Below, piece after piece: positions 23,801 to 43,489 of a DNA stretch of 64,000 bases. The stretch's first letter is position 1. Every line of letters begins with the position of its first letter. The notes beneath the pieces are model-generated. The model was not told the DNA's origin, searched no databases, and saw only the letters and a program-made list of their open reading frames with translations. This stretch comes from Bacteroidales bacterium (GTDB taxonomy: Bacteria; Bacteroidota; Bacteroidia; Bacteroidales; GCA-2748055): the NCBI GenBank assembly GCA_029938715.1, contig JAOZUK010000009.1, forward strand, positions 3,504-67,503. Reading direction: 5' to 3'. The translations under genes were made by a program, and so were the position numbers.

Positions 23801-26800
23801 GGCCATCGGATGAATAGGTCAGATCAGTTTCAATTGAAGTCACTGAAAGATTTGCACCACGTTTCCCAGATGTTTCTATTGTCTTCGGATTTCCATAAGA
23901 ATCAAAATCACTATACGAGGTTACTATTTCACGATCACTCTTATAAAAGTCCTTTTTCTGGATAAAATTTCCTTTAGTGGATTCATAGGAATAGTAGATA
24001 CTATCAGTCTCGCTATTACCATTTCTAGTGTATGTCTTGCTTACATACTGAGGTAAAGCATTCACATACCAGCCTGCGCTGATGTAGTCATATTTTTCCG
24101 TTATTGTTGCCTCACCGTTCACATTCATTCCCTTTTCAGAGATAAATCCATCATTATTGTAGTCAAACGAATTAGTCGTAGTAGTTCCTGCCTGGACATT
24201 CTGAATAGTTACTGAATCGGTTTTCACCAAATACTTGTGGACATCTATACTATCAATTGATGTATGTGTATCTGTAAATTGTAGATAACCCGCTACCGAA
24301 CTAATTGTATCAGAAACCGAATAGCTATGAAAAAAGGTTGTATCATAATCTAACCAGGACACCTTCGAGATATCTGATAAATCATTTTCCACCTTCCTCT
24401 TCGCAAACCCAAGAAAGCCTTTGCCCTCCAAATGGATCTTTGCTCCTTGATAATTATACTCTATAAATGATGAATCAGCCACCCCATTATCTGAAGATAT
24501 ACTGCTAAGTACATACCAAGGGGCAATAAAATCTATCACCGGAAATATGGCCGTGTTTTCTTTTTTGTAAACCGAGGAGTTGGTGAGTGGTTTATAAGAA
24601 TATCTTGTTTCAATCCCTAATCCATTGGTTATGGAAGTAACAAAATGACCAGGCTTACCAGAATCAACAAAACAAATTTTCTTATCGTTTTTTGGATCAA
24701 CTAATTCAACTATTCCATCCCCGTTAAAATCACCCTCTTTAACATCCTCCCCTAATTTAAAATTGCAGTTAACCGAATCGTAATTATAAGAAATTGTGGT
24801 ACCAGTTATAGAAGGCTTGAAATCATAAAAAATCATTTTCAGTGTATCCTTGCTGAATATGAGTAATTCATTTCTCCCATTTGCATCAATATCTGAGGCG
24901 ATGGCCTTACTGAAGATAGAATCATGACCATCGTAATGCCCTAAACTCACCCTTGGGCCCCTAGATGCGAGGTGATCAATAAAAAGCTCTCGACCTAGAC
25001 TTTCATCAGGGTAGGTAACCGAAGTTTCAGATCGAAATGAAGACCAACAATCGAGGTCGTCAACGTCATTGCATGACACTGAGAGATAAGTTTCATATTC
25101 ATATTCTAATCCATATGCTTCTAAAAAATCCTCCCATTCGGTAATAATATCGGGAAAAGTACACCCTCCAATTGATGTACAATATTCTCCCCAAAGGGAG
25201 GAAACACTAACCGTAATGGAATCAAACTCCTCATTTCCAAGAGAAACATAACCTGAAATTCCATCACCATTTAAATCGATTGATCCCAGATAACCACTAT
25301 TGATGGTATTCTCGTAAGCAAAACTATCAGCTTCAGGCTGGTATAGCATTATATGAAAAAAGGTACTGCTGTCCTGAATATAATCGTAAAAGCCATCACC
25401 GTTAAGCTCCATCCACTCTGGGTCCACTTCGGTCCCCAGCACATGGGTCCGTTTTTCATAATTGTCATCTATATACTGTACTTTTTTATCAATACAGAAT
25501 GGACTGTAACCTAGCTTCAAAATATCTGGTGAATAGTCCATTTCTAATTTAAGACCAAGGTTATCCGGCCCATATTTGAGAGTTCTGACCCGTTGAAAAT
25601 ATGTAGAGGCATCAATATCAAAGTTGATAAAGCGACATACATTGTAATCCAATACAATAGAGTCGGGATAACTATACTTATTTGAATCGCCCCCACAATT
25701 CGCATTTACATAGTCTATCCCATTAAATATGTTATAGTTATCACTTAAATGTGGTATTAGTGGACTCCATTCCAATACCTCAACCATCAGTTCCATAATC
25801 CCATCTCCATCAAAATCTCCAGCACTTACATTCTCGATATCATTGAAGTTATATGTATCTGGAATTGATGATCCATTACAATGAACAATACACATCTGCC
25901 TTAGTTCTGACCAACCCTCATAAACATAGGAGCGAGGAAGAATATCCGAAAAATCATGGACAGTTTTTATACCTACTGTTGAGCCCTTATACAGATAGTA
26001 AACCCAGTTATCTGTGTTAACGGTGACCAAGTCCGTATAGCCATCCCCAGTAAAATCACCTGAGAAATCCAGATAGTCCGGCCCTGAATTAATATATGTG
26101 GTACTGGGGGTTTGTTCCATATTTGGAACTGGGAATTCCCAATTTATTTTTGTTGCATTGAACCTGTAGTTATCTTTATCATATTGGACAATCTCGTCCA
26201 GGAGGGTTTCACTTTTGGTAGTATCATAAAAAAACTCATATTTGCCGAAGGACTCATTGTAAGATTCAATTGTAATATCTTTGAGCAACTGGTCGTTTAC
26301 AATAAGATCGTTATGGATGTAGCCATAACTGATATCATCCCGGGTGGTGTAGTGAAACGAAATAGTATTGACTGGGAATGAGGGAGCTTTTCCACCATAT
26401 TTTATTTCAGAAAGAAGGATCTCGCCAGTATCCTCATCTATCTCATAAGTGTATTCAATGGAATTACCGTTTCGGTCAGATACTTTATTTAACATCCATT
26501 TCCACTCAGTTGAAGCATCAAGTGATAATCTTGAATTTGCGGTGAATCCATATTCCATTGTACGCCCATCTGGAGTTGTGACTTTGAACCAAAATAGGTC
26601 ATAGTAAATTTGCTCCCTTGTGATCTTGATATTTGAGACATGCTCAGTTCTGAAGGAATCTGCATCCAAGCCTGCACTATTTAATGCTATTAGTCTTTGT
26701 CCATCCCAGGCAACTCGACATTCACTATTGGTATCAGAAATTATTGAGCTTTCATTATCATAATACTTTGTTTTCCCGACAGCCACAATCGACGAGAGCC

Positions 26801-27260
26801 CAGACAAACTCCATCCCCTCCCTAATAGTCCATTTCCTGCCTGGCTGTTATAAGTAATGGCAAGCTGGGGAACCATTCCTTTATTTCCTGAAGGAACCTC
26901 TATGGGGATGCTATAGGTCGCTGCCCCTGTTGGGCTTACTCCGGGTTGTCCATTTATCGTGCCTACAATAAAACTTCCATCCAGTGTACCTATGGAGTCA
27001 AGGGTATTGCCAGGTGGAACAGTGTGAGGAGGTTCTTCAATATTCCAGGGATCGGCATTGGCTATAAAGGAGCCATTGCCGTTGGATGAAAATGTGAAGC
27101 CGGCATCCAGGGTAATAGTATTGTGAGCAACGATCTCCACATTATCATAATGCGAAAAAATGGTATCCACCGTAACTGTTTGATTGTATATAAGTGTATC
27201 GTTAGCAAGAACCTGAACCGATACAGATAGAAGCAATAGGGTTGGGAGGATTTGTTTCAT
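20826..27260 (-). CDS. Rhs/YD-repeat polymorphic toxin with SpvB-like N-terminal, FG-GAP/VCBS and TcdB-mid-like regions
   Basis: Signal peptide MKQILPTLLLLSVSVQVLA (ATG at 27260; the track TTG is at 27269). SpvB-like block GMVPQLAITYNSQAGNGLLGRGWSLSG. Several GDFxGDG repeats and many YD repeats (YxYDxxGN). Rhs core end GRIYDPLLGRFLSPDP...YVLNNPLKYVDPSGY, followed by a ~265-aa variable tip. Confidence 0.9.
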   Translation of the reverse strand: MKQILPTLLLLSVSVQVLANDTLIYNQTVTVDTIFSHYDNVEIVAHNTITLDAGFTFSSNGNGSFIANADPWNIEEPPHTVPPGNTLDSIGTLDGSFIVGTINGQPGVSPTGAATYSIPIEVPSGNKGMVPQLAITYNSQAGNGLLGRGWSLSGLSSIVAVGKTKYYDNESSIISDTNSECRVAWDGQRLIALNSAGLDADSFRTEHVSNIKITREQIYYDLFWFKVTTPDGRTMEYGFTANSRLSLDASTEWKWMLNKVSDRNGNSIEYTYEIDEDTGEILLSEIKYGGKAPSFPVNTISFHYTTRDDISYGYIHNDLIVNDQLLKDITIESYNESFGKYEFFYDTTKSETLLDEIVQYDKDNYRFNATKINWEFPVPNMEQTPSTTYINSGPDYLDFSGDFTGDGYTDLVTVNTDNWVYYLYKGSTVGIKTVHDFSDILPRSYVYEGWSELRQMCIVHCNGSSIPDTYNFNDIENVSAGDFDGDGIMELMVEVLEWSPLIPHLSDNYNIFNGIDYVNANCGGDSNKYSYPDSIVLDYNVCRFINFDIDASTYFQRVRTLKYGPDNLGLKLEMDYSPDILKLGYSPFCIDKKVQYIDDNYEKRTHVLGTEVDPEWMELNGDGFYDYIQDSSTFFHIMLYQPEADSFAYENTINSGYLGSIDLNGDGISGYVSLGNEEFDSITVSVSSLWGEYCTSIGGCTFPDIITEWEDFLEAYGLEYEYETYLSVSCNDVDDLDCWSSFRSETSVTYPDESLGRELFIDHLASRGPRVSLGHYDGHDSIFSKAIASDIDANGRNELLIFSKDTLKMIFYDFKPSITGTTISYNYDSVNCNFKLGEDVKEGDFNGDGIVELVDPKNDKKICFVDSGKPGHFVTSITNGLGIETRYSYKPLTNSSVYKKENTAIFPVIDFIAPWYVLSSISSDNGVADSSFIEYNYQGAKIHLEGKGFLGFAKRKVENDLSDISKVSWLDYDTTFFHSYSVSDTISSVAGYLQFTDTHTSIDSIDVHKYLVKTDSVTIQNVQAGTTTTNSFDYNNDGFISEKGMNVNGEATITEKYDYISAGWYVNALPQYVSKTYTRNGNSETDSIYYSYESTKGNFIQKKDFYKSDREIVTSYSDFDSYGNPKTIETSGKRGANLSVTSIETDLTYSSDGRFLLSKEGPLDYKTTYEYDSSTGMLESQTTPNRTNTTLEYGPFGAMKKITGPNLIEKSSRLFWAHDHPSSPDSALFYNWTAVSGTSPALKFFDERGRELRSVAMGFNNDSIYVDTKYDTKGRVSQKSMPYYSTNSPLWTTITYDNFGRMLTVTSPDTAVSTYNYSLLRTTVTTIKGSDTIETSKLVNAMGETTQSEDNIDNVVHYSYYPDGKLKFSYVSTHTSDTTSFSYDAQGNRTSISDPDAGTITSMYDAFGQLLRQINAKNDTTTYQYDVAGRTTKLTDARGDIFYSYVTDTTTAAFGQLDSVYNSDHSLQEVYTYDSDYGMLLTHTRTGVNKTFTNTFTYDWFGRPMTRTYPSDFELEYAYTSNGDLDQVRGNGLTLWSCNDANSLGQITSYSQGGNSTSLTYNMHGELNRVYTAGVMDMCYTFDDMGNLSSRKDDRSDQMEVFEYDNLNRLIGIDYYDPNGYVSTADLNIGYDNCGNIISKTDVSSTINYGEGEKPHALTSIENPNKSYDPPPQNISYNVFNKMSLISDTLSGGGLLELDIKYGLGNQRIKTTQARDSIVERVKYFNGDYEEDSTSAGIKKYHYIYGGTGLTAIFVMEGSGNDTLHYVLSDHLGSLTAIVNASTSEVKNYSFNAWGMPRNASDWTISDTSYLFAGRGFTGHEHLSDFNLINMNGRIYDPLLGRFLSPDPIVQAPGNPNSYNRYSYVLNNPLKYVDPSGYLGDPTTLTKYSPFSEADAYGDNSRFSQAPNMISSYGGGSGFGNNWFDIQTDPTGGWWKAPTGEMVNRYSGKRMNTGEFRSRYLDPSSSISESDKQFVGFGTRYNEDLDIVESHFGWEITEIPMSSNGYKDVTAEFDEQLSNTMIYFSLAKHRFDREFPKDRLRKLLFFRSKVNDHAVFDIKRTSFSRANLGSEYGFYRGQSFRYDDFGNYNFGLAARSFGLSLKDALRGAGLNQIRKLDPDLNNSLGYFDHTRDTQLIIMGFFHEY

Positions 27261-27283
27261 GGTGTGCAAGGTGTTTGTGGGGA

Positions 27284-27721
27284 TCAGTTCTTAACAATTA
27301 TCCACTCTTTGTGCCTGTTTCCGTAAATGAGCTTCAGGATATAGGTTCCAACAGGGAGCATACTAACATCAATCTCGTTGGTCGACTGGGAGGCGATTCT
27401 CTGAATCACCTGCTTGCCAAGGTTGTTGTAGATGATAATCATCCTTTGATCCTCTTCCATGGCAATTTCATTGAGGGTGACGTACAAGGTGTGAGAAGCC
27501 GGGTTTGGATACACATTCAGGCCTTCTTCCGATTCAATTTCTTCATCCACAGTGGTTACTTCCGCACTTTTCTTGGCCTGTACATAATATGTAATCGTTC
27601 TCTCGGTACGGTTTCCAGCAGAGTCGTATGTAAAACTAATCTCTGTAATGGAATCTGATTGGGCAAAAAGATTGGTACAGGAGAATATAATCCCACATGC
27701 CATTAGATAAATTGCTCTCAT
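27284..27721 (-). CDS. Small secreted protein with T9SS C-terminal sorting domain
   Basis: 145 aa with a signal peptide and a CTD-like tail LNVYPNPASHTLYV...GTYILKLIYGNRHKEWIIVKN. It ends 23 nt upstream of the rhs ATG. Confidence 0.6.
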   Translation of the reverse strand: MRAIYLMACGIIFSCTNLFAQSDSITEISFTYDSAGNRTERTITYYVQAKKSAEVTTVDEEIESEEGLNVYPNPASHTLYVTLNEIAMEEDQRMIIIYNNLGKQVIQRIASQSTNEIDVSMLPVGTYILKLIYGNRHKEWIIVKN

Positions 27722-29002: not shown

Positions 29003-29209
29003 TCACTTTTTATGACAGGCAGGACAACAATATGCGCATCCATCTGCGGTGCTATAGAATGTTTTGGCTTTTTGTACTGCACCATGGCAGGATTCATATG
29101 TTCCTAGGTAAGTCTTGCTGGTTACTTTTGCCAGCCAAATACATCCATATTTGTGAACTTCATGGTCTCCATTGGCTTGTGCACGATCATTTACGTAGTA
29201 TTGAGGCAT
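29003..29209 (-). CDS. Small Cys/His-rich hypothetical protein
   Basis: 68 aa: MPQYYVNDRAQANGDHEVHKYGC...CHGA...DGCAYCCPACHKK. It has a zinc-binding look, but no function was recognised. Confidence 0.4.
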   Translation of the reverse strand: MPQYYVNDRAQANGDHEVHKYGCIWLAKVTSKTYLGTYESCHGAVQKAKTFYSTADGCAYCCPACHKK

Positions 29210-29614
29210 GTTCTTCTATTTTGCGACTCTATATTTGAGTCAGGTTAGATTTTGATTTTCTAATCTCTTAGGGGTTAGTTCCCCGCCGCTCGCGGCGAAT
29301 AAAATAAATATAAACCTATCATGATACCCCGCTGCTTGCGGCGGGGAGATTCATTTTTTTAAGTATTATGTTGTTTAATTAAGATGCACTCTATTTTGTT
29401 ACCCGTTTTTTAGCTGAAATATTCAACTCTTTTTGTTGAGTACATTTAAATGCCTGATATTCTGGCATTATCTAGTGCCTGTTTTTGACCTTATTTGCGA
29501 CCAGATTATGCAGAATCAGAAATTGGCGGGAATCAAATCTGGTGGATGAAATGACAGATATCCAATTAACTACCCTTTAATTGAGGCATATATGCCCCGA
29601 TAATCAATCGATAA

Positions 29615-29860
29615 ATGTTCCAATTTGGGAACATGAATCTTCAACGTGATCCTGTATTTCTCATTAAATTGGGTGGCAACTTGCGTAAATTCCGCTTGAA
29701 CAAAGGTCTTACACAGGAGATGCTAGCAGATAAAGCAGAAATACAAAGATCCCAAGTAACAAGGATTGAGCGAGGAACAACAAATCCTACAATAAACACG
29801 TTGAAAGTAATTGCAGAAGTATTGGAAATAGATTTGAAACTTTTATTAGAATTCGATTGA
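29615..29860 (+). CDS. XRE-family helix-turn-helix transcriptional regulator
   Basis: 81 aa with LRKFRLNKGLTQEMLADKAEIQRSQVTRIERGTTNPTINTL, a canonical HTH_3 pattern. Confidence 0.8.
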   Translation: MFQFGNMNLQRDPVFLIKLGGNLRKFRLNKGLTQEMLADKAEIQRSQVTRIERGTTNPTINTLKVIAEVLEIDLKLLLEFD

Positions 29861-29865
29861 GCAAG

Positions 29866-30486
29866 ATGCAGGTAGCAGGAGAAAATGTGGATGTAGATCT
29901 TAGTGTCAAAGCTTCAGAATACACGGATTCTGAACTGGTTGATGGGATAAGGTGTCGTGATGAACATGTGTTTAAGCATCTTCAAACCAGGTATAAACAT
30001 GGTATCAGGTTGATGGTTTGTATGAATGGAGGAAATGCAGATGATGCGGAGGATCTCTTTTGTGACGGTCTTGTCAGACTCATGGAGATTGTTGATAGGC
30101 ACGGATTTAAGCTAACTTGTAAATTACCTAGTCTCCTTTATGCGATTTGTGAAAAGAAATGGAAGCTAATTCTATTAAAGCGAAGAACAGCAGCAAGATA
30201 TCATAGACGAAAACTGGATACTACTCCAGAAGACGATTTTATAGATGTCATTGACAAGTCATTATATTCCATGATTTTTTGGGAGAGTTTTAACAAGCTC
30301 AATGATGACTGTAAAAGAATATTTCGGTCCTATTTTAAAGAATTATACTCGAAGGAAATCGCCGAGATTCTGAACTATTCTTATGGTTATCTTAGAAAAA
30401 GAAAGTGCTTGTGTCATAAGTCACTTGTTAGGATGGTAAATGTGCACCCTGAGTATCGAAAAATCAAAGCTACAGAAATACTATAA
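29866..30486 (+). CDS. Sigma-70 family (ECF-like) RNA polymerase sigma factor
   Basis: Region-2-like DAEDLFCDGLVRLMEIV and region-4-like LYSKEIAEILNYSYGYLRKRK. The first ATG is at 29866, and the track TTG at 29857 overlaps the XRE stop. Confidence 0.6.
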   Translation: MQVAGENVDVDLSVKASEYTDSELVDGIRCRDEHVFKHLQTRYKHGIRLMVCMNGGNADDAEDLFCDGLVRLMEIVDRHGFKLTCKLPSLLYAICEKKWKLILLKRRTAARYHRRKLDTTPEDDFIDVIDKSLYSMIFWESFNKLNDDCKRIFRSYFKELYSKEIAEILNYSYGYLRKRKCLCHKSLVRMVNVHPEYRKIKATEIL

Positions 30487-30507
30487 TTGCTACAAACTCA
30501 CTGAACG

Positions 30508-31308
30508 ATGAGCAGTATTGAAAAATATTCCGACAGAATTGCAAACTATGTCTTCAATGATATGAGCCTATTGGAAAGAAAGCAATTTGAGGAGGACCTT
30601 CTCACGGATAATGAATTAGCGGAGGAATACAAGAGGCAGGTTCATATGGTAGACTATCTAAAATCTCGATCAGCTTTAGAGGAGATGACTTCTGATCCAG
30701 ATATGGCTGAAGCTCGCCGGATAGTCGATGAATTTTATGATTCTCCTGAAGAATTGAATAAGGAAAGCAGACCACAACCATCGAAAAGTATTAAGGTTCA
30801 GAGAATGCTTTACCCTATTATTGGAGTAGCGGCAATTTTTATTGGATTGGTGATATATAAGATTTCGTTTCTTGGGCCTTCGAATGAACGTTTATACAAT
30901 AGACATTATAAGCCTCTAGATGCATCCAGCTTCGTGTATCGTGGAGAACAAGACCAAATTGACCTAAAGCTTAGGGAGGGACTATCATTTTATCTAGAAG
31001 GATCATATCTGGAATCAAATGTATTGTTCCAGGAACTTTTTCAAGGATATCCAAATAATCCCGAAGCAGGTCTCTATTTTGGCCTTAGTAGAATAGCTTT
31101 AGAAGAATATGAAGGAGCCATTAGGCTATTGGAATCACATATAAGTAATCAAACAATATACACTACTGAGGCAAAATGGTATTTAGGATTATGCCACGTC
31201 AAGCTTGATAACAACTCAGAAGCAGAATTATATTTTGAGGATTTATCCCAGATCGGAGGGTATTATGGTAAAAAATCGCTCGAGATATTAAAGAAGCTTG
31301 ACCGCTAA
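30508..31308 (+). CDS. Putative anti-sigma factor: N-terminal cytoplasmic helix, one TM segment, C-terminal TPR-like domain
   Basis: Positioned directly after the sigma gene. TM segment MLYPIIGVAAIFIGLVIYKISF, with TPR-like repeats in the C-terminal half. Confidence 0.5.
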   Translation: MSSIEKYSDRIANYVFNDMSLLERKQFEEDLLTDNELAEEYKRQVHMVDYLKSRSALEEMTSDPDMAEARRIVDEFYDSPEELNKESRPQPSKSIKVQRMLYPIIGVAAIFIGLVIYKISFLGPSNERLYNRHYKPLDASSFVYRGEQDQIDLKLREGLSFYLEGSYLESNVLFQELFQGYPNNPEAGLYFGLSRIALEEYEGAIRLLESHISNQTIYTTEAKWYLGLCHVKLDNNSEAELYFEDLSQIGGYYGKKSLEILKKLDR

Positions 31309-31371: not shown

Positions 31372-34113
31372 TTATTCAGGCCAGTATTTCACCCGAACAC
31401 GCCTAATAACTGCGATAAAAGTGAGTATTGCTAAAATCCCTAGGATAATCTGAATAGTTCTCCGATGATGGACTATCGGATTTGGGTCTCCAATAACCTG
31501 AAAGCCGGCCCAAAAATGAGGGTGAGTAAATGAGTTTGGAGTGGACTCCAGGTATTTAATTTTTGCTTTTCTTAGTGCTTCGGTTTTATTTAATCCTTTC
31601 GAAAGTAAATGGTAATAATCGATCATAATCCTGGAGCTAGATATATCTTCAATTGGCCAGAGAGTATGTATAACGGATGATGCTCCGGCAAGAAGAAAAC
31701 TCCTTGATATGCTGAGCATGCCTTCTCCTTCATAAAATGGACCCTTACCAGATTCGCAAGAATTTACAACAACCATTGGTGATTCTATGCTAAGGTTACA
31801 GATTTCAAAATCGAATAGTTTTCTAAATGTTGAGTTTTTCTCTATCCCAAGAATTAAATAGGGGTTTCCAGTAATCTCAGAATCTGCGACCGAATGAGTA
31901 GCAAAGTGAAGTATTTTTCCCTTACTAGCCTTTGCAAGGCTGTCATTTGAATGGATATCAATTATTTTTTCACCTTTGAATTCTTTAAGAATTTCTTCAA
32001 TTTCCATTGAGCTATTTATAATCGAAAGGTTCCCATTGTCTGATTCATTAAAATCAGGAGCAATGGCTACTATGTTAGGCGGCCTCCTGAGAATTGCACG
32101 ATCGGGCTTATTTATCATTGTCGAGTTTGGCGCATATCCTATTGCATAATCATAAAGAAGGTAGTTCTGATCAGAGTACGATTTTAAACTGTCAATATCA
32201 CGCACCAATAAATCAAAAGGAATGAGGATCAGCTCACCGTCTGGAATGATTGTGAGATTTCTCGTTCTTACCCAATCCTCTATTGGATGAAAAAGAGCAA
32301 TATATAAACCATGTAACCAGGATATTAATTGCTTATCAGTATTGCCTTTAGACTTGACTGTATTAATAGAAGAAGATGAATTAAACACATTATATATTTG
32401 ATTCGTAAAATTATTGTCCACAATGCTTTGTGATATTCTACATGAATCTTTTGTTATTAAAAATGTATAGATCTTTTGCCCTTTATCAGGATCTTTTTCT
32501 CCTAATGAAAATTCAATGACAGTCTGCTTTTTGGACAACCTAGATTGAAGGTCAACCAATGGGTTGTGATTGTGCTTCGTTTCTGCAAGTGAGTCGAATC
32601 TGTTGCCAAATATTCTTTGGTGAATATTTTCGAAAGATCTCCTAAGAGTGAAAAGCTCATGTTTCATTTGATCTACCTGAACAGAGTTTGACTCCTGGTT
32701 CACTTCTCCCTCATAAATCAGGTTAGTGAGACTAAAGATTTGTTCGTACATGGACAGAAGATTATTTACAGAATCCTCCTCCATACTACTCATATACATC
32801 CAGTTTTTTTCTTTGATTTCGAAATTTAGTTCCAGTGTTTTACTCAGTGAAGCAAATCCGTAAGCCTTCTCTTTATAATATAGTAAACCTGTATACTCAA
32901 ATAATTGAAGTGCCACATCAATTCCATGAACAAAGAAATCTCGCTGATTGCCTATCAGAAATAGACGGCTTTCCCTCGTTAGATAACTATTTTGGATTCT
33001 CGTAAGAACGTAAAAGGCTTCGTCAGCGGTTTTCAGTGCAACTTCAAGTATTTCAATTGCTTTTGTTCTCAAGTTATTACTGTTGGCTAAACCATTCAGA
33101 GCTACCAGTTTGCTATTATAAGTTTTCAAAAGGCGGATGTCAAGCAAAGGCTTTAAATCAACAGGATTGGAAAATATATTGGTATTGTAAAAATCAGGGC
33201 AAATTGAGATTAATGCATCCTGCAGAAAATTTAGCGCTTCTTTATAATCCTCTGATTCTATATAGAATTGAGCAATATGGTAGTAGCAGTCTGAAATATA
33301 TGCATGATTACTGCCATAATTGAATAAATAATTTTCGATTGCTTGATTGTAATAACTGAGTCCCATGTCGTGATCCTTACTCTCAATTAGGAATTGTCCG
33401 TAGTCACGATAAACGTTGCCCAATTGATAGTAGGAGGACCCATGTTCCAACTTCCACCTTTCAACACTTGCTTTATAATACTTGTCTGCCTGTGGAGAGT
33501 TCTTCAATGCTTGATATGTCCGTGCTACATTAAAATAGACGCTTCCCAGGTGAGTGAGGTCATACGCTTCTTTAATTATTTTAGATTCAAATAGAAGTTT
33601 TAAAGCTTCAGTGTAATTCTCTTGATCATAGAGGACTAGCGCTTTGTTTAGTTTTAATAAAGAAGACCTTTCCTGAAACCCAAGGGTAAAATTTGCTTCT
33701 TCAGATAGGAGTCGTTCTGTTTCTTCATAATACTCATTGGCCAATAAATACTCCCCTATGTGCCTGCAAAGAACTCCCTGGTTAATTAGAATGTCGAAAT
33801 AAAGAGTTTTTTCCTGTATGGAGTTCATTTTACAATAGGCTAAAGCAAGTTTATAGTTCTCTTTTGCTTGCTCGTAAAGCCCCAAATTCTTAGCTGCCAC
33901 CCCTAGATTACTATATAGTACAGCAATATTGTAATCAGGTAGATTGTAATCAGATTCTAGTATATGGTTTAGGATCTGGTAGGATTCATAGATATTGCCT
34001 TTCTCTCTGGCTAGCAGGTAACTATTAAACAGATCGCCAGCAATTTCCACATCACTTTGACCAAATGTTATAGTAGTGACGAAGAGAAAAAAGACAAAGG
34101 AATGAAACCTCAT
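31372..34113 (-). CDS. TPR-repeat CHAT-domain (caspase-like) protein with C-terminal membrane anchor
   Basis: 913 aa with a signal/anchor at the N-terminus and many TPR units. The CHAT His/Cys dyad contexts are ILHFATHSVAD and VVVNSCESGKG. C-terminal TM segment IQIILGILAILTFIAVI. Confidence 0.85.
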   Translation of the reverse strand: MRFHSFVFFLFVTTITFGQSDVEIAGDLFNSYLLAREKGNIYESYQILNHILESDYNLPDYNIAVLYSNLGVAAKNLGLYEQAKENYKLALAYCKMNSIQEKTLYFDILINQGVLCRHIGEYLLANEYYEETERLLSEEANFTLGFQERSSLLKLNKALVLYDQENYTEALKLLFESKIIKEAYDLTHLGSVYFNVARTYQALKNSPQADKYYKASVERWKLEHGSSYYQLGNVYRDYGQFLIESKDHDMGLSYYNQAIENYLFNYGSNHAYISDCYYHIAQFYIESEDYKEALNFLQDALISICPDFYNTNIFSNPVDLKPLLDIRLLKTYNSKLVALNGLANSNNLRTKAIEILEVALKTADEAFYVLTRIQNSYLTRESRLFLIGNQRDFFVHGIDVALQLFEYTGLLYYKEKAYGFASLSKTLELNFEIKEKNWMYMSSMEEDSVNNLLSMYEQIFSLTNLIYEGEVNQESNSVQVDQMKHELFTLRRSFENIHQRIFGNRFDSLAETKHNHNPLVDLQSRLSKKQTVIEFSLGEKDPDKGQKIYTFLITKDSCRISQSIVDNNFTNQIYNVFNSSSSINTVKSKGNTDKQLISWLHGLYIALFHPIEDWVRTRNLTIIPDGELILIPFDLLVRDIDSLKSYSDQNYLLYDYAIGYAPNSTMINKPDRAILRRPPNIVAIAPDFNESDNGNLSIINSSMEIEEILKEFKGEKIIDIHSNDSLAKASKGKILHFATHSVADSEITGNPYLILGIEKNSTFRKLFDFEICNLSIESPMVVVNSCESGKGPFYEGEGMLSISRSFLLAGASSVIHTLWPIEDISSSRIMIDYYHLLSKGLNKTEALRKAKIKYLESTPNSFTHPHFWAGFQVIGDPNPIVHHRRTIQIILGILAILTFIAVIRRVRVKYWPE

Positions 34114-34191
34114 ATGTTATAATTAGCCGATTGCTTGCTGGGCTAAATATAATATAGAATAGTTTCATTCCAATTTATCCTCTTGTCTAGA

Positions 34192-34338
34192 TTATGGATA
34201 CCAAGGTGTAGGCGGTGGATCCTGATCACCTCCACCTTCACCATCTCCACCTTTTAGGTAGTTCATTTTCTTTGGATCCAATTTGTTCTCAGAGAACTGA
34301 GCAAAAAAACTTCTTTCATTTTTTGACAATTGTTTCAT
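34192..34338 (-). CDS. Unlisted 48-aa peptide with double-glycine-type leader
   Basis: My own translation: MKQLSKNERSFFAQFSENKLDPKKMNYLKGG-DGEGGGDQDPPPTPWYP. ATG at 34338 and TAA at 34192-34194. It lies 78 nt upstream of, and co-oriented with, the CHAT gene. It falls below the track length cut-off. Confidence 0.45.
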   Translation of the reverse strand: MKQLSKNERSFFAQFSENKLDPKKMNYLKGGDGEGGGDQDPPPTPWYP

Positions 34339-35001
34339 AACAAAGTGTTTTGGTTTACAATTGCCGTTTAATTCTATTGAGGCTGGATGTGTTACCTTGT
34401 AGTCATGGGAACTTCTTTTTATGATTGTTTATATATCTGTGTATCTGAGGGATATGTGTGAGTCTATAGGGTATTACAGAAATTATCGTTGACTGGAGGG
34501 TAACAAATTCTCGATGATCTTAATTAAACACGTTAATCATTAAAATTGGAGGGGTTAACTGATACCGAATTGGAGCAGATGCCTTCCAGCTAAAGGCATT
34601 GGTGCAGACTATTCAACATACTAATCAGAGGAGGGCATGACTTCTTTGAGAAAAGACTAAAGCGATTATAATCTTGGAGCGTCATGTAAGCCTCCCCCAG
34701 ATCCGCAACTGAGAGAAAGCAAAGGAGCTAAGTTTGGGAAGCCTGTTCCGAGCATACACGCCTCCTTGGTTCTTGGCCAAAACGCCAGCATAAGATCCTT
34801 CCCTGATTTACTCAAATATCTATCCCCATACCTATTCTAAAATGAGAAGTAAAGGGGCATATTTGTGGGTTTTCCTAACTTAAGATTCTACCCTCCTGAA
34901 TCGACGACTTCCCCAAGTAGACAGGTATTGAGGTGCAAGTGAAAAACACTATCCAAGGGGAGGAGATAATTGCCAAACTATAAAAACCTAATTGATGAAT
35001 A

Positions 35002-35260
35002 GCTGATCCAAAGATCCAGGCTTGATTTCAATTATTGCTAGTCTTTTTAGTAACAGAAGTGTTAGGAAGGCTAGAATTACTGAGCAATAGCATGTTTTAG
35101 AACATACCAGATACGGGTAACAAATCAAGGTCCATTCGAATTAAACCAGCATACTGGTTTATAACTATTCCAAATTGTATCATTTCAGAAATGCCTCTTC
35201 CTGATTGGAATCTCCATTATTCTAAAAGAAAAATAAACTGTAGTTTCGAAATGGAATTCA
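35002..35260. repeat. Copy A of a ~260-bp conserved upstream module (copy B at 42029-42289)
   Basis: Alignable by eye along its whole length with copy B. A 45-nt block is identical (35126-35170 = 42155-42199) and contains the hairpin aaaccag-cata-ctggttt. The shared end is gtagtttcgaaatggaattca. Confidence 0.8.
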
Positions 35261-35345: not shown

Positions 35346-36284
35346 ATGAAAAAGACACATATCCTTGCCCTCGGCATACTACTGTTATTGCAAAGTAATT
35401 CTGCCAATTGCCAAAAAGTTTGGTTTCAAGAAAACACTACATGGCACTATGGTATACTTCTTAGTGCACTTGATCCTTTGAATATTCAAGAATATGCAAT
35501 ATATGAAGTGACTGGGGATTCTTTAATCGATAGTAGAATTTATAGTATAATTGAAAAGACCAGATATTTTCTAGATGGTTCGAAACAATTCTTGGGATAT
35601 GAGTTGTATAATCAAGAGGGGGACCAGATATACTATTATCAAAGCGGACATAGGCACCTACTTTATGATTTCTCTCTCGAAAAAGGTGACAATTGGACCA
35701 TTAGAATACCAAACGATTCGGACGAACCACATTCAATAGAAGATACTGTTAGAACAGTTCACATTGATTCAACAAGTGTAATAGTAGTCAATTCAGATAG
35801 TCTAAAAGTTCTATATACAACCTTCTCTAATAATCCTAATACAAACAAAATAGACTGGCAATTCAAAGGTCCAATAATTGAAAAAATAGGTTCAACATAT
35901 CTACTTCCTGGGATTTGGTGGTTTGTTGATATGGATATTCCATATTTAAGATGCTTCAAAGATTCGGTTCTAAGTTATATTGTTTATCCAGATATTGAAT
36001 GTGATGGCTTATTTACCAAAATACAAGATTCAGAACCCAAAAATCAGGATATTTCAATTACCCAAATCGCTAATGAAAAGCTATTCTATTCAGTCCATAA
36101 CAATGCATATAAGCGCATTAATTACAACGTATTTGACATCACTGGCAAGATGATTCTAAATGGGCATGCAGAATGTGCGGGAGAAAATTCAATATCATTT
36201 TCTGGTCAAAATAAAGGATTATTTGTGATCATTTTCACGTCTAATAATGAAGTCATTTCCACATACAAATTTATAACCTATTAA
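35346..36284 (+). CDS. Secreted hypothetical protein with T9SS C-terminal sorting domain
   Basis: Signal peptide and a CTD-like tail (NVFDITGKMILNG...GLFVIIFTSNNEVISTYKFITY). Confidence 0.55.
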   Translation: MKKTHILALGILLLLQSNSANCQKVWFQENTTWHYGILLSALDPLNIQEYAIYEVTGDSLIDSRIYSIIEKTRYFLDGSKQFLGYELYNQEGDQIYYYQSGHRHLLYDFSLEKGDNWTIRIPNDSDEPHSIEDTVRTVHIDSTSVIVVNSDSLKVLYTTFSNNPNTNKIDWQFKGPIIEKIGSTYLLPGIWWFVDMDIPYLRCFKDSVLSYIVYPDIECDGLFTKIQDSEPKNQDISITQIANEKLFYSVHNNAYKRINYNVFDITGKMILNGHAECAGENSISFSGQNKGLFVIIFTSNNEVISTYKFITY

Positions 36285-36297
36285 CAACCCTCATCTT

Positions 36298-39200
36298 ATG
36301 AAAACCCCACAACTAATTTTTCTCTTAGTCACCTCTTTAATTCTTAATCTGAATGTAAATGGACAACAAGAATTTGAATGTTTTACTCCAGCCAGTGGTT
36401 CACTTAAAAGTACTGCACCGTCTAATTGTGTAAATAGTCCAACTGCTTATACAAATTATATCCCAGGATCAAATACTCCAGTCAAAATAGTGAAGTTCAA
36501 CATCCACGTCATGCAAAAATCTAATGGATCGAGGAACTTCCAATCAACAAATTCTGATCACATAGAATATCTTGAATCGGTTGAAACATCTATGAATAGT
36601 CTTTTGGAAGGCCTTTCCGAACCCTATTGGGGAGGAGCAACAAATGATACATATATTGAGGACGCAAGAGTCCAGTTTGAATTGCAGAGTATTTACTTCC
36701 ACCAGGATGATATTGCCTGGTATAATAATGGAAGTGTATGTGGTTCATATTGTTACAGCAATTATAAAACGAATGAAGAAAGCGAATTAAACATTTTTCT
36801 TTGTCACCATTATGACACCACAAAAAATTCTCCCACAGGAGGTTGTGGCCCAAGCGACCATTGGGCAGTGATGTACAATCATTATGAGGATTACCTCACT
36901 AATGGTGATCGCATGTGGTTGAAATCCAGGGGAATTCTGCATGAGATCGGTCATACATTTGGCTTGTCACACACTCACTCTCCTGATCAGTTTAGTGACA
37001 CATATTCTCCAGAGTATTATACTGCGAATTACCCCGATGGATGGTGCGACCCTACTACTGATTATCAGTGTTCCAATAATGTAATGGGATATAACAAATC
37101 AAAGACCTACCTTTCTCCATACCAGTTAGGTGAAATTCATAGGGTGTTTTCAGGAGACTATCACACGCGTTTCCTCACTTTTTGTGATTACGACTCGAAC
37201 AATACTACAACGATAAATTCAAGTCAGACATGGGACATAGGCAAAGTTTTTGGTGGAGATATTCGAATCACATCGGGCAATACTCTCACTGTAGAATGTA
37301 TGATTTCTCTACCGCCAGGAGGGAAAATCATTGTGGAATCTGGAGGTACGCTAGTTTTAGATGGAGCCCATTTAACTAACAGTTGTGAAAATGGACTATG
37401 GAATGGAATTGAGGTCTATGGAATTAATAGCGCGGATCAAACCTCCTCAAGTCAGGGGAAAGTAATAATAAAGAATAATTCTTTAATTGAATATTCGAAG
37501 GAAATATCAGCAATCAATGGAGGTATTATTCAAGCGGATGACTCGAAGTTCCTGAATACCGATAGAGCCGCAGAGTTTCTTTGGTATAGTCCAACAGTGT
37601 ATAATTCCGCTAGTTATTTTGACAATTGTGAGTTCGAGATCAATAATGATTACTACAACTATGACCAATCTCTGAGGCCTTTTATTACACTCAACGGTAT
37701 TAAAGGAGTAGAGATTTCAAATTGTTCTTTCACTAATATTTCAACTACTGAAACATATGATGATTTGGGAACAGCTATACATAGTGTAGATGCCTCGTAT
37801 ACTGTTGACAATTGTGAGATAGAGGATCTTTACTATGGTATTGATGTTCGGAATACTGACGCCACATATGATGTATCGATAATTAATTCAACTATAAATG
37901 GAAATAGCAGGGGGATATTCTTAAGCAATGTTGATGATGCTATCGTAACAGATAATGATTTTGATGTTCCAGGAACTGGATCAGGTTCACAAACCTATGG
38001 TATTTATTTAAATCATTGTTCTGGCTATGATATTGATGATAATGTGATAGATGGAATAAATGACGATAATTCAACATATGGCATAATTGTGAATGAATCC
38101 GGCACAGCTTCTAATGAGATAGTTCAATGTACAATGAATGACTTGTATTATGGCACTATCGCACAGGGGGCTAATGCGAATTCAAGTGTTGGCTTAGAGT
38201 ACTTTTGCAACACATTTGAAGACAATTACATTGGAATGGGAATTGGCCAATATGATAGCACAAAAACTAGTCATAATATTGCCAGTGAACAGGGCTATCT
38301 TGATTATGCAGCAATGAACCAATTCATTACAAATTCTTATACGGATATTTATAACACTAGTACAACGTTCAGATATTGGTATATCAATTCCACATATTAT
38401 AACCCTTCCACAACTTACTCTTCACCCGCACCCACAAAGTCCGAAGCCTGGTTCAATACTAATAATTGTTCAGCATATGGAAAGAAGTCAACTTCAGATT
38501 CATTTGCCCCGTCTGACTTATTAAGCGATTTGAGCTCCCTTGAAAGTGATATTAAACTCTTAGAGGCAGATCTGTCACTTCATCAAAAGGATTCAGTTGA
38601 GTTTTACAAAAGTCAGCCCTATACTGAAATTGGTAGGCAATTGCAAGAGTTGAGATTCAAGAAAAAGTTAAAATCTAGGATTATTAATTCCTTACTAAGG
38701 ATATATAAAGCAGAATCTAATGCTGATAACAAAATCATAGAACTACTATCTCTTCAGAAAGATCAAGAGTATAAATACCGGCTCATTGATTATTTGCTTA
38801 AAACAGAGAGGTACATTGAGGTACATGACTTATATGATGATATTGTAGAAAACCGTTCATCAATTAGCGAAATGGAGTACTATAAGGATTACTCCAAAAT
38901 ACTTGACATGAAAACTAATATTCTATCCTCAGAACGAACCTATTTTGAATTAACAGATCACGAAAAAGAGGAATTAAAAAAACTGGCAGAATCAAATACG
39001 AAAGCTGGTATAGTTGCAAAAAACATCCTTTTCCTATCGGATTCAATTTGCTATGAAGAATATATATTAGATCTGCCTATTCCTTCAAAAGAAAGAAAAG
39101 AAGAGAAATCATCCAACTCATATTCTGATCCCTCAAATTCCTTAGAATCAGTTTTAGACCTTGTTAGATTTGATATTTCACCAAATCCAACTAATGGAGA

Positions 39201-39417
39201 TTTTGAGGTGCATTACGATATTTCAAGCATTAAATATGAAATTGCCTATTTGAAAGTATTCGACATGAGTGGTAGAGAACTATTTAACATTCAATTGGTT
39301 GAGTCACATGATCACATATCTGTTAATAATCAAGATTTGTTAAAAGGAACTTATTTGTGCATTATTAGAGCTGACAATCGATTGATAGGGAACAAGAAAA
39401 TAGTCGTTAACGAATAG
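36298..39417 (+). CDS. Large secreted zinc-metalloprotease-like protein with parallel beta-helix repeats and T9SS CTD
   Basis: HEIGHTFGLSHTH (HExxHxxGxxH zincin motif). Repeated N/D/G-rich beta-helix units (ISNCSF, IINSTINGNSRGI, VTDNDF). C-terminal ISPNPTNGDFEV...GTYLCIIRADNRLIGNKKIVVNE. Confidence 0.65.
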   Translation: MKTPQLIFLLVTSLILNLNVNGQQEFECFTPASGSLKSTAPSNCVNSPTAYTNYIPGSNTPVKIVKFNIHVMQKSNGSRNFQSTNSDHIEYLESVETSMNSLLEGLSEPYWGGATNDTYIEDARVQFELQSIYFHQDDIAWYNNGSVCGSYCYSNYKTNEESELNIFLCHHYDTTKNSPTGGCGPSDHWAVMYNHYEDYLTNGDRMWLKSRGILHEIGHTFGLSHTHSPDQFSDTYSPEYYTANYPDGWCDPTTDYQCSNNVMGYNKSKTYLSPYQLGEIHRVFSGDYHTRFLTFCDYDSNNTTTINSSQTWDIGKVFGGDIRITSGNTLTVECMISLPPGGKIIVESGGTLVLDGAHLTNSCENGLWNGIEVYGINSADQTSSSQGKVIIKNNSLIEYSKEISAINGGIIQADDSKFLNTDRAAEFLWYSPTVYNSASYFDNCEFEINNDYYNYDQSLRPFITLNGIKGVEISNCSFTNISTTETYDDLGTAIHSVDASYTVDNCEIEDLYYGIDVRNTDATYDVSIINSTINGNSRGIFLSNVDDAIVTDNDFDVPGTGSGSQTYGIYLNHCSGYDIDDNVIDGINDDNSTYGIIVNESGTASNEIVQCTMNDLYYGTIAQGANANSSVGLEYFCNTFEDNYIGMGIGQYDSTKTSHNIASEQGYLDYAAMNQFITNSYTDIYNTSTTFRYWYINSTYYNPSTTYSSPAPTKSEAWFNTNNCSAYGKKSTSDSFAPSDLLSDLSSLESDIKLLEADLSLHQKDSVEFYKSQPYTEIGRQLQELRFKKKLKSRIINSLLRIYKAESNADNKIIELLSLQKDQEYKYRLIDYLLKTERYIEVHDLYDDIVENRSSISEMEYYKDYSKILDMKTNILSSERTYFELTDHEKEELKKLAESNTKAGIVAKNILFLSDSICYEEYILDLPIPSKERKEEKSSNSYSDPSNSLESVLDLVRFDISPNPTNGDFEVHYDISSIKYEIAYLKVFDMSGRELFNIQLVESHDHISVNNQDLLKGTYLCIIRADNRLIGNKKIVVNE

Positions 39418-42381: not shown

Positions 42382-43482
42382 ATGAAAAAAATAATTATTT
42401 CTTGTCTTGCACTCCTTTCAATTTTCTGTGTTGTCGCTCATGGCCAATTAGAGATGAACTCTAGTGGTGAAGTTGGTATCGGAGCAACTCCAACAACTGG
42501 AATAGATCTCTTTACGCCAGAAGCAAAAATAACTCATCTAGGCGTTAATGCATCACCGGTCAGTGGTATCGATTTTTATACTCCAGAAGCAAAAATATCC
42601 ACTTTGGGCATTAACGTAACCCCAACTGGAGCTCATCAGCTTTGGGTTCAAGGAATAGCAAGGTTTGGCTATTCTGCAACAATGTCATGTTTTGAATTCA
42701 AATATCTTGATATGTATGATATGCAACTCTTACCAACAATGAATAACTCTTGTGTGATTGGTTCATCAAGTTATGGTATTAGAAAAGTCACTGCATATAA
42801 CTTTACTACTTTATCAGATAAAAGGCAAAAAGAGAATATCCAAACCCTCTCAGGATCCCTCGATCAAATTATCAGACTACAGGGGGTGAAATATGATCTT
42901 AAAAAGGAGTTTGCATATGATGAGGCTAAGATCTCAGATGAGAGTTTGAAAACCAAACTTGATCTAGAAAGAAAAGGTTTCATTGGTTTCTTGGCCCAAG
43001 ATGTCTATGAAGTCTTGCCTGAGGTCGTATCATATGATGAGGATGCTGATATCTATACTATGAATTATTTAAGGATCATTCCGGTACTAGTTGAAGCTAT
43101 CAAAGAACAACAAACTCAAATAGATGATCTGAAGCAATTAGTTGCTTCGTCAAGTGGATCATTAAAAGGGGCAGCAGTCTCTGGCACCTCATTAGATGAG
43201 GTAGGTGAAAATATGGAGCTAACAAGTTTATTCCAAAACCATCCCAATCCATTTTCTGTAGAAACAACAATTGGCTACTATTTGACTGAAAATATCACAT
43301 CGGCATCATTATTCGTTTATGATATGACTGGAAAGCAATTAAAAAACTTCAATATATATGAAAAAGGCAGTGGGGAGGTTATCATATCCAGCGGAGAATT
43401 AGACGCCGGATTGTATATGTACTCTCTTGTTGCTGACGGAAAGCTAGTCGGGACGAAGCAAATGATTTTAACAAAAAATTGA
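42382..43482 (+). CDS. Tail-fibre-domain (peptidase S74 chaperone-like) protein with T9SS CTD
   Basis: LSDKRQKENIQTL...LQGVKYDLK...GFLAQDVYEVLPEVV...YLRIIPVLVEAIKEQQ is paralogous to 27732..28904. The C-terminal tail is HPNPFSVETTIGY...GLYMYSLVADGKLVGTKQMILTKN. Confidence 0.7.
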   Translation: MKKIIISCLALLSIFCVVAHGQLEMNSSGEVGIGATPTTGIDLFTPEAKITHLGVNASPVSGIDFYTPEAKISTLGINVTPTGAHQLWVQGIARFGYSATMSCFEFKYLDMYDMQLLPTMNNSCVIGSSSYGIRKVTAYNFTTLSDKRQKENIQTLSGSLDQIIRLQGVKYDLKKEFAYDEAKISDESLKTKLDLERKGFIGFLAQDVYEVLPEVVSYDEDADIYTMNYLRIIPVLVEAIKEQQTQIDDLKQLVASSSGSLKGAAVSGTSLDEVGENMELTSLFQNHPNPFSVETTIGYYLTENITSASLFVYDMTGKQLKNFNIYEKGSGEVIISSGELDAGLYMYSLVADGKLVGTKQMILTKN

Positions 43483-43489
43483 TTGCAAA

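Follow-up and report, generated by a model that had tools for sequence, protein, structure and literature searches.

Does a 48-codon open reading frame (ORF) directly upstream of a large gene for a TPR-CHAT protein, i.e., a protein that combines tetratricopeptide repeats (TPRs) with a caspase-like CHAT domain, encode a peptide that works together with this putative protease and, if so, in what kind of system? The question is raised by a 64,000-nucleotide stretch of contig JAOZUK010000009.1 from a Bacteroidales bacterium (hereafter the window; coordinates count from its first nucleotide). A sequence-only reading of this DNA had drawn attention to the small ORF and likened its product to the double-glycine (GG) leader peptides of Bacteroidota bacteriocins and of peptides that ribosomes make and that are modified after translation (RiPPs). 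Here we report that the ORF has the conservation pattern of a translated gene and is co-inherited with the TPR-CHAT gene and with genes for a sigma factor and an anti-sigma factor. Tentatively, we propose that the four products form an extracytoplasmic signaling module.

Conservation Indicates that the Small ORF Is a Translated Gene

The ORF and its two predicted parts are as follows.

34192-34338, minus strand: peptide gene, 48 amino acids (aa), ATG start, stop codon at 34192-34194
34246-34338, minus strand: leader, residues 1-31, with the C-terminal end ...KMNYLKGG
34195-34245, minus strand: core, residues 32-48, DGEGGGDQDPPPTPWYP

The product is MKQLSKNERSFFAQFSENKLDPKKMNYLKGGDGEGGGDQDPPPTPWYP, i.e., the leader MKQLSKNERSFFAQFSENKLDPKKMNYLKGG followed by the core, and 78 nucleotides (nt) separate its stop codon from the ATG of the 913-aa TPR-CHAT ORF. 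The position, sequence and gap are exactly those that the sequence-only reading had reported, and public gene callers had already called the ORF (cluster P0001, with four members).

CHAT orthologues at 78, 65, 39, 37, 36 and 32% identity each had an ORF of 43-48 codons lying 76-124 nt upstream, and these ORFs shared the pattern ...F...(I/L)E..K(M/L)(N/D)YL.GG(D/E)G.G...W. Although the peptides differed in length, every insertion or deletion was in frame. Among 28 orthologues, the pairwise differences at codon positions 1, 2 and 3 numbered 4669, 4821 and 8393, respectively; the invariant Leu28 was encoded by six codons and the invariant glycines by three or four codons each. The two alternative frames contained 2-7 stop codons. 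Because of this third-position excess, the synonymous codon usage and the stops in the other frames, we conclude from the sequence comparison that the ORF is a translated gene, as the sequence-only reading had supposed, and is under purifying selection.

Being short, 34192-34338 might instead be a frame left open by chance, or a non-coding leader of the CHAT mRNA, and in the three closest genomes the non-coding DNA on either side is well conserved, too. However, the amino-acid pattern is kept where the CHAT proteins share only 32-39% identity, the indels keep the frame, differences are most frequent at third positions, invariant residues are written with synonymous codons, and each of the other two frames is interrupted by 2-7 stops. 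We regard this explanation as already refuted by the conservation data and give it practically no credence.

A conserved hairpin between the peptide and CHAT genes was also considered and rejected, the z-scores ranging from -3.6 to +0.5 across loci. Rfam gave no match near the peptide locus.

The Peptide Belongs to a Compact Family with a GG Leader

The sequence-only reading had suggested a search for the peptide family. A profile built from seven peptides and run against 5.8 billion proteins, with clustering at 90% identity, returned 45 clusters of 40-51 aa (E = 1e-23 to 2e-7), only one of which carried a source name ("hypothetical protein"). The family is compact, because an exhaustive HMMER search of 1.84 billion representatives gave only 31 matches at E ≤ 1e-3, nearly all of 41-65 aa. 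Its consensus is MKK..L...F.NE.IE.KKMNYLVGG|DGDGGQG..DDPW(K), where the bar marks the end of the leader; F15, G30, G31, G33 and W46 are invariant in the alignment. No models for the peptide were found in NCBIfam, Pfam or PADLOC, and none of the module components matched a PADLOC defense model.

Residues 1-32 were related to NCBIfam TIGR04149, a family of Bacteroidota GG leaders, at E = 3e-4 (20.6 bits, below the cut-off of 25), which upholds, at this sub-threshold level, the likeness drawn in the sequence-only reading. No other ORF in the window resembled TIGR04149, and 8 of the 45 family members matched it at E ≤ 0.01 (best E = 3.5e-6). Double-glycine leaders are about 15-30 aa long and end in Gly-Gly (or GA/GS); the GG at residues 30-31 was invariant among the 45 members, and conserved leader positions were L at -4, M or L at -7, and I, L or M at -12. 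The core of the window peptide is short, acidic and Gly/Pro-rich, without a modifiable Cys/Ser/Thr pattern, and across the family the core is about as conserved as the leader. A Sec-type signal was absent from the window peptide.

The TPR-CHAT Protein Is Predicted to Be Periplasmic

The features of the gene downstream of the peptide are as follows (TM, transmembrane).

31372-34113, minus strand: TPR-CHAT protease, 913 aa, ATG start, with Pfam matches to CHAT and several to TPR_12/TPR_2
34060-34113, minus strand: signal peptide, residues 1-18, MRFHSFVFFLFVTTITFG|QSD, with Gln at +1
32539-34053, minus strand: helical TPR array, approximately residues 21-525, from Pfam and a structural model
31486-32313, minus strand: CHAT domain, residues 601-876 (PF12770)
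31891-31908, minus strand: HFATHS, residues 736-741, including His740, the dyad His
31747-31764, minus strand: NSCESG, residues 784-789, including Cys786, the dyad Cys
31405-31458, minus strand: C-terminal TM anchor, residues 886-903, a hydrophobic helix followed by the basic tail RRVRVKYWPE

The match to Pfam CHAT was strong (151.4 bits, E = 4.8e-44; gathering threshold 24), and H736, H740 and C786 were invariant among 35 homologues, so that the His-Cys dyad is, judged from sequence, intact. The TPR-CHAT assignment, both dyad motifs and the C-terminal anchor agree with the sequence-only reading, which had not included the signal peptide. Gln19, at position +1 of the signal peptide, is nearly invariant in the orthologues, and Gln at +1 is typical for signal-peptidase-I substrates in Bacteroidota. 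Because there is an N-terminal signal peptide as well as a C-terminal TM helix with a basic tail, the body of the protein is expected to lie in the periplasm, with its anchor in the inner membrane.

An AlphaFold2 (AF2) run on 12 sequences modeled the CHAT domain poorly (predicted local distance difference test, pLDDT, of 68), and the run was repeated with the 35-sequence alignment (mean pLDDT 86; predicted template modeling score, pTM, 0.84). In the resulting model, the chain forms about 24 helices as far as residue 525, then a mixed α/β CHAT domain and finally the C-terminal helix. A Foldseek search of the PDB with this model ranked highest Csx29 (8eey_B, E = 3e-14), human separase (E = 3.5e-14) and DdvA (8rot_A, E = 2e-13), and separase-securin complexes were among the matches; when the PDB was searched by sequence, DdvA was the sole CHAT protein matched. 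As modeled, therefore, the protein would have the separase/craspase/DdvA-type architecture, in which a TPR superhelix at the N terminus precedes a CHAT domain of caspase fold. The TPR part also matched the kinesin light chains KLC1/2, LGN and the quorum sensor NprR, all of which have TPR domains that hold short peptides.

The sequence-only reading had considered the CHAT protease as either a processing or a sensing partner of the peptide. Because the CHAT ectodomain is predicted to be periplasmic, where it would meet the peptide only after export, its location favors sensing or regulated proteolysis over leader processing.

Sigma and Anti-Sigma Genes Are Co-inherited with the Peptide-CHAT Pair

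Convergent to the CHAT gene are the following genes and features (ECF, extracytoplasmic function; HTH, helix-turn-helix).

30508-31308, plus strand: anti-sigma factor, 266 aa, with weak NF052375 and TPR matches
30805-30873, plus strand: TM helix of the anti-sigma factor, residues 100-122
30889-30945, plus strand: juxtamembrane motif of the anti-sigma factor, RLYNRHYKPLDASSFVYRG, conserved in the alignment
29866-30486, plus strand: ECF-like factor of the sigma-70 family, 206 aa if begun at the ATG; a TTG at 29857 opens the longest ORF
29615-29860, plus strand: XRE-type HTH regulator, 81 aa (HTH_3, E = 2e-16), directly upstream of the sigma gene

The sigma factor matched TIGR02937 at 40.1 bits (E = 2.8e-10; cut-off 42.9). 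The anti-sigma factor has a single TM helix, with a predicted cytoplasmic N-terminal region, which contains no Cys, and a predicted periplasmic C-terminal TPR domain. Its juxtamembrane segment aligned as LY..YY.PL(D/E)AS.(F/Y)..RG and is, speculatively, a candidate contact or cleavage site. The sigma and anti-sigma genes (29866-31308) had no place in the sequence-only reading, nor did the shared motif described below. The HTH gene is an accessory component, because it is present in some loci only (the window, L001 and L007, in our numbering of loci).

A metagenome scan seeded with the peptide gave 19 further loci, and five more clusters were looked up. Among distinct loci with at least 370 bp of downstream sequence, 30 of 31 had a TPR-CHAT homologue (30-78% identity) on the same strand about 60-250 nt downstream, bearing out the co-occurrence that the sequence-only reading had proposed as a check. 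Only L056 departed from this: its contig measures 1.5 kb, the peptide ORF runs on, and next comes a fragment like the C-terminal TPR region of the anti-sigma factor. L056 looks like a degraded or chimeric locus. Homologues of the sigma and anti-sigma genes, convergent to the CHAT gene, were present in all 13 loci with enough sequence. The peptide, TPR-CHAT, sigma and anti-sigma genes are thus co-inherited.

Several further features of these loci were observed. In most of them, two conserved small genes that are missing from the window lie directly upstream of the peptide gene, behind their own copy of the shared motif (L010, 5160-5321 and 5348-5596; L044, 7369-7548 and 7566-7823; homologues in L045-L067 and L069). 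The first encodes about 55 aa and contains ...LIYMTSDVWITPELKRFK...; the second encodes 82-129 aa and is related to an 80-aa L001 protein with a weak HNH match. In L010, 63-nt direct repeats that are 98% identical (4960-5022 and 10438-10500) flank a 5.4-kb module consisting of the small genes, peptide, CHAT, anti-sigma and sigma genes and a 79-aa ORF. The repeat contains the 3' end of a LytTR-type gene; the repeats look like an insertion footprint, and the module may be mobile. One distant locus, L068, has a Peptidase_C14 (caspase/metacaspase) gene divergent from and upstream of the peptide-CHAT pair (1394-2362, minus strand). In one clade (L005 and L006; 2200-8100, plus strand), the module adjoins genes for a GATase_7 (asparagine-synthase-like) protein, an AMP-binding enzyme, a 395-aa protein and an FAD oxidoreductase, together with a divergent gene of 426-431 aa that has faint STAND/NB-ARC matches and its own motif copy.

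A Sister Branch Has the Same Parts with an Unrelated Peptide

The window-type peptide was absent from more distant CHAT homologues (24-30% identity), found in Prolixibacteraceae and relatives. There, a homologous ECF sigma gene directly follows the CHAT gene, and its product passes TIGR02937 (49.4 bits, cut-off 42.9); a 499-aa TPR protein homologous to the window anti-sigma factor is encoded on the other strand in four of six loci. In the conserved DNA between the CHAT/sigma pair and the anti-sigma-like gene, on the opposite strand and 136-196 nt upstream of the latter, lies a 34-codon gene for the peptide MKNFDYLTVEVLSNEELASVKGG|YGIPAPIIIEE, with the leader end ...LSNEELASVKGG. It was found in L011-L015; its core is duplicated in L015, and L017 has a variant.

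L011, 3054-3158, minus strand: sister-branch peptide
L012, 5497-5601, minus strand: sister-branch peptide
L013, 5448-5552, minus strand: sister-branch peptide
L014, 5452-5556, minus strand: sister-branch peptide
L015, 5403-5552, minus strand: sister-branch peptide, core duplicated
L017, 5006-5161, minus strand: sister-branch peptide, variant

The leader of this second small-peptide family, which did not appear in the gene annotations of these loci, is of the canonical double-glycine type, LSxxELxxVKGG. It passes the curated model TIGR01847 (17.7 bits, cut-off 15.7) and is also related to class IIb bacteriocin leader models. Thus, all four parts are found together in each of two diverged branches, in which gene orders differ and the short cores are unrelated. 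To us, this recurrence argues most strongly that the peptide is a functional part of the module and that the common requirement is a GG leader rather than a particular core.

The two leaders also bear on the idea that the peptide is a bacteriocin or RiPP precursor from which the CHAT protease removes the leader, or which it matures in some other way. Their relationship to TIGR04149, to TIGR01847 and to class IIb bacteriocin models would fit such a role; moreover, toxin and type IX secretion system (T9SS) genes lie nearby, and no other protease is linked. However, the cores are only 12-17 aa long, acidic and Gly/Pro-rich, lack a Cys/Ser/Thr pattern, and are conserved instead of diversified. No immunity, transport or maturase genes were found in about 30 loci; in particular, there was no radical-SAM/SPASM maturase in the gene lists of the related loci or in a scan of the window that covered every ORF above about 300 aa. 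The invariable partners are instead a sigma/anti-sigma pair, which implies regulatory logic. In addition, we know of no caspase-fold protease that cuts after Gly, which counts against maturation by CHAT. The bacteriocin/RiPP framing of the sequence-only reading is thus poorly supported, and we consider it improbable.

Could the peptide instead stay in the cytoplasm and regulate the sigma/anti-sigma pair there, the GG being merely part of a Gly-rich linker? The lack of a linked exporter and of a Sec signal would be in keeping with this, as would the equal conservation of leader and core and the sub-threshold match to the GG-leader model. Yet the invariant GG is preceded, as in exported GG peptides, by hydrophobic residues at -4, -7 and -12, the textbook leader of the sister branch passes a curated cut-off, and a cytoplasmic role would leave the pairing with a periplasmic protein unexplained. 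We see little chance that this explanation is correct.

A Promoter-like Motif Precedes the Peptide Gene

In the window and in every clade, a bipartite motif with constant spacing, GGGTAACAA-N11-12-T(C/T)T(G/T)ATTAAAC (short form GGGTAACAA-N~12-TTAATTAAAC), ends 25-35 nt before the ATG of the peptide gene. Of 28 regions upstream of peptide genes, 23 contained the strict pattern, whose background rate is 0.0075 per 80 nt. The window has four copies.

34367-34395, minus strand: copy 1, GTAACAC-N15-AATTAAA, 28 nt upstream of the peptide ATG
29374-29402, minus strand: copy 2, reading toward the genes for a 68-aa ORF, an S74-domain protein, a T9SS-tail protein and an RHS/Ntox44 protein
34500-34528, plus strand: copy 3, back to back with the peptide promoter
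35117-35145, plus strand: copy 4, about 200 nt upstream of the T9SS-tail genes 35346-36284 and 36298-39417

At other loci, copies of the motif lie in front of the two small genes or of S74/T9SS genes. The DNA upstream of the peptide genes in the sister branch contains GGGGTAACC-N16-TATTAAGA, which has the same architecture. The housekeeping promoter of Bacteroidota is TTTG / TAnnTTTG, and ECF promoters usually have a GTAAC-type -35 element with a spacing of roughly 16-17 nt. Judged by its sequence, the motif is promoter-like: it is unlike the housekeeping promoter and resembles ECF promoters in its -35 element and spacing. The linked ECF-like sigma factor is the candidate to recognize it.

We adopted this orientation because every copy then has a gene directly downstream and the peptide copy lies at a fixed 25-35 nt. 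The opposite orientation, TTTAATTAAGAT-N9-TTTGTTACCC, pointing toward the HTH-sigma operon and, from 190 nt, toward the peptide, was rejected because two of the three copies in L010 would face no gene.

Copy 3 is followed on the plus strand by about 590 nt (34529-35116) with no ORF of at least 30 aa on that strand; conservation of its first ~130 nt extends from the window to L003, but not to L001. This segment may be a small RNA, or it may be what decay has left of the two small genes.

A Candidate Peptide-Controlled Sigma Switch

We tentatively read the locus as a four-part extracytoplasmic signaling module in which the peptide controls CHAT-dependent inactivation of the anti-sigma factor within a self-induced circuit, and put the likelihood of this reading somewhat below an even chance. 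The precursor would be cut after the GG and exported by an unlinked peptidase-ABC transporter. Its core of 12-17 residues, acidic and containing Trp or Pro, would then bind a periplasmic TPR surface, either that of the CHAT protein or that of the anti-sigma factor. Binding would switch the CHAT protease, which would act as the site-1 protease on the anti-sigma factor; the sigma factor, once freed, would read the motif and induce the peptide-CHAT pair along with nearby genes for T9SS cargo and toxins. Cores of the window family have (D/E)(P)W at their end, those of the sister family IIEE. By speculative analogy, both core ends are reminiscent of known TPR ligands, i.e., of the Trp-acidic motifs found in kinesin cargo and of the EEVD tails borne by chaperones.

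The same parts might form a peptide-pheromone circuit of new design, which we hold to be possible but doubtful. The exported GG peptide would be read in the periplasm by the TPR-CHAT protein, the protease would cut the TPR-containing anti-sigma factor, and the sigma factor would induce the peptide, T9SS-secreted proteins and polymorphic toxins. If this were true, it would amount to a Gram-negative quorum or kin signal that works through regulated proteolysis and exists in at least two branches with unrelated peptides.

Alternatively, the peptide could be a negative regulator, i.e., a securin-like pseudosubstrate, inhibitor, chaperone or decoy substrate that holds the TPR-CHAT protease off until the peptide itself is diluted, degraded or displaced. 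The separase fold family is controlled in this way, and separase-securin complexes were among the structural matches; the peptide is presumably co-transcribed, and is strictly paired, with the protease, and its core is conserved like a partner-binding segment. An inhibitor of this kind would, however, require the same unproven export step, its self-induction together with its protease gives no obvious switch, and the core has no obvious likeness to the juxtamembrane segment of the anti-sigma factor. On balance we think a negative regulator unlikely.

Several observations weigh against the peptide-controlled switch that we prefer. No C39-ABC exporter, which usually adjoins the gene of such a peptide, was found among the scanned ORFs of the 64-kb window or in the gene lists of about 30 related loci; in this respect, as for the maturase, the sequence-only reading was right. 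The window peptide misses the cut-off of TIGR04149, a family of radical-SAM-modified RiPP leaders (GG_sam_targ_CFB). Leader position -15 is polar, lacking the canonical hydrophobic residue, and there is instead an invariant Phe at -17. The conservation of the core is unusually high for a pheromone, and in some distant family members the conserved Trp is replaced by Pro-rich tails. The motif is linked to the sigma factor by association only, and it is absent from the sigma operon itself. No RNA runs carrying the stretch were found, the sequence occurring only in DNA metagenomes from hydrothermal vents and sediments. Finally, we infer export, GG cleavage, peptide binding and the CHAT substrate from the genes.

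Other Genes in the Window

Genes downstream of motif copy 2 and elsewhere in the window are as follows.

29003-29209, minus strand: 68-aa Cys-rich ORF, no family match, 91% identical in L001
27732-28904, minus strand: S74 "endosialidase chaperone" domain protein
27284-27721, minus strand: T9SS-tail protein
20826-27269, minus strand: polymorphic toxin (SpvB/TcdB/RHS), 2147 aa, with Ntox44 as its C-terminal domain
39736-41418, minus strand: ISL3-family transposase
17305-18186, plus strand: IS66-family transposase
42382-45151, plus strand: S74-domain protein, then a streptopain-like cysteine protease (C10) whose pro-domain is an I69 inhibitor
56549-57433, minus strand: IrrE/M78-type peptidase
59425-60831, plus strand: ThiF-like protein
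60982-62499, plus strand: 505-aa protein with a cytidine-deaminase (MafB19-like) domain

The two transposase genes flank the region of the module and of the toxin genes. At 29262-29360, with the 68-aa ORF on one side and motif copy 2 on the other, there are two hairpins rich in G+C, ccccgccgctcgcggcg and ccccgctgcttgcggcgggg. A T-run follows the second of them, and they look like terminators or repeat elements. The IrrE/M78-type peptidase, ThiF-like and MafB19-like genes may together form a toxin or defense cluster.

Comparison with Known Systems

In the literature searched, we found no description of a module of peptide, TPR-CHAT protein and sigma/anti-sigma pair in Bacteroidota, in agreement with the view of the sequence-only reading that the peptide-CHAT pairing was undescribed; CHAT is absent from the main text of the ECF classification paper (PMC7826278). 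Closest to it come DdvA/DdvS and Craspase with Csx30 and RpoE. DdvA is an anti-sigma factor fused to a periplasmic TPR-CHAT protein, for which self-cleavage of the linker has been proposed to occur before RseP acts (PMC11506125). DdvA-like proteins have been reported only in Myxococcota and one Comamonas species; the input signal of DdvA is unidentified and, according to the authors, the functions and activation of bacterial TPR-CHAT proteins are little understood (PMC11506125).

Like DdvA/DdvS, the window module appears to couple a periplasmic TPR-CHAT protein of the separase/craspase type, with a His-Cys dyad, to an ECF sigma/anti-sigma pair; in both, the anti-sigma factor is the proposed target of regulated proteolysis. 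Whereas DdvA joins a zinc-binding anti-sigma domain, a TM segment and TPR-CHAT in one polypeptide, the window TPR-CHAT protein is separate, anchored at its C terminus, and starts with a signal peptide instead of an anti-sigma domain; the anti-sigma factor is a protein of its own that has no zinc motif and carries its own small periplasmic TPR domain. The window module also has a dedicated GG-leader peptide gene, belongs to Bacteroidota, and neighbors T9SS cargo and RHS toxins, whereas DdvA neighbors CBASS or CRISPR. By analogy, the most economical model would be a split form of the DdvA logic with an added peptide input.

Craspase (type III-E CRISPR; Cas7-11/gRAMP and Csx29, with Csx30, Csx31 and RpoE) likewise has a TPR-CHAT protein genetically coupled to an ECF sigma factor. 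There, the TPR-CHAT protein cleaves a sigma-regulating protein; such cleavage in the window module is our proposal. Craspase is cytoplasmic and RNA-guided and needs Cas7-11, whereas the window protease is predicted to be extracytoplasmic, with the peptide as its candidate input. The locus gene lists contained no Cas7-11/gRAMP or CRISPR, and Rfam gave no CRISPR match in the window.

In leader length, GG, hydrophobic residues at -4, -7 and -12 and short core, the peptide resembles known GG-leader peptides (the pheromones ComC and BlpC, class II bacteriocins, TIGR04149 and TIGR01847), and, like theirs, its gene appears to be self-induced. It differs from them in having no linked C39-ABC transporter, and the proposed receptor, in place of a histidine kinase, is a periplasmic TPR protein that would feed a sigma/anti-sigma switch. 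The activation of DegS-RseA-sigmaE by C-terminal peptides would follow the same logic, in that docking of a short peptide on a sensor domain permits the anti-sigma factor to be cut at site 1; the window protease is not of the DegS/PDZ type, and this likeness is a functional analogy only. The TPR_12 array and the core ends may similarly be compared with TPR peptide receptors (RRNPP, kinesin light chain with Trp-acidic motifs, Hop with EEVD). In such systems the peptide is often recognized through a C-terminal or aromatic-acidic end. In RRNPP systems, however, the TPR receptor is cytoplasmic and bears an effector domain, and the pro-peptide is exported through Sec and then re-imported, whereas the window TPRs are predicted to be periplasmic and the peptide is without a Sec signal.

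The component types are thus all known, and DdvA and Craspase already link TPR-CHAT proteins to ECF sigma control. What looks new, though not categorically so, is a split, peptide-associated, periplasmic TPR-CHAT sigma switch. To our knowledge, peptide signaling is barely documented in Bacteroidota, an environmentally dominant phylum. If our proposal is true, a self-induced GG peptide and an ECF sigma factor would link cell-cell signaling to antagonism through T9SS cargo and RHS toxins. The module itself encodes a candidate ligand or partner of a periplasmic TPR-CHAT protein, and synthetic 12-17-mers could serve to test activation and substrate.

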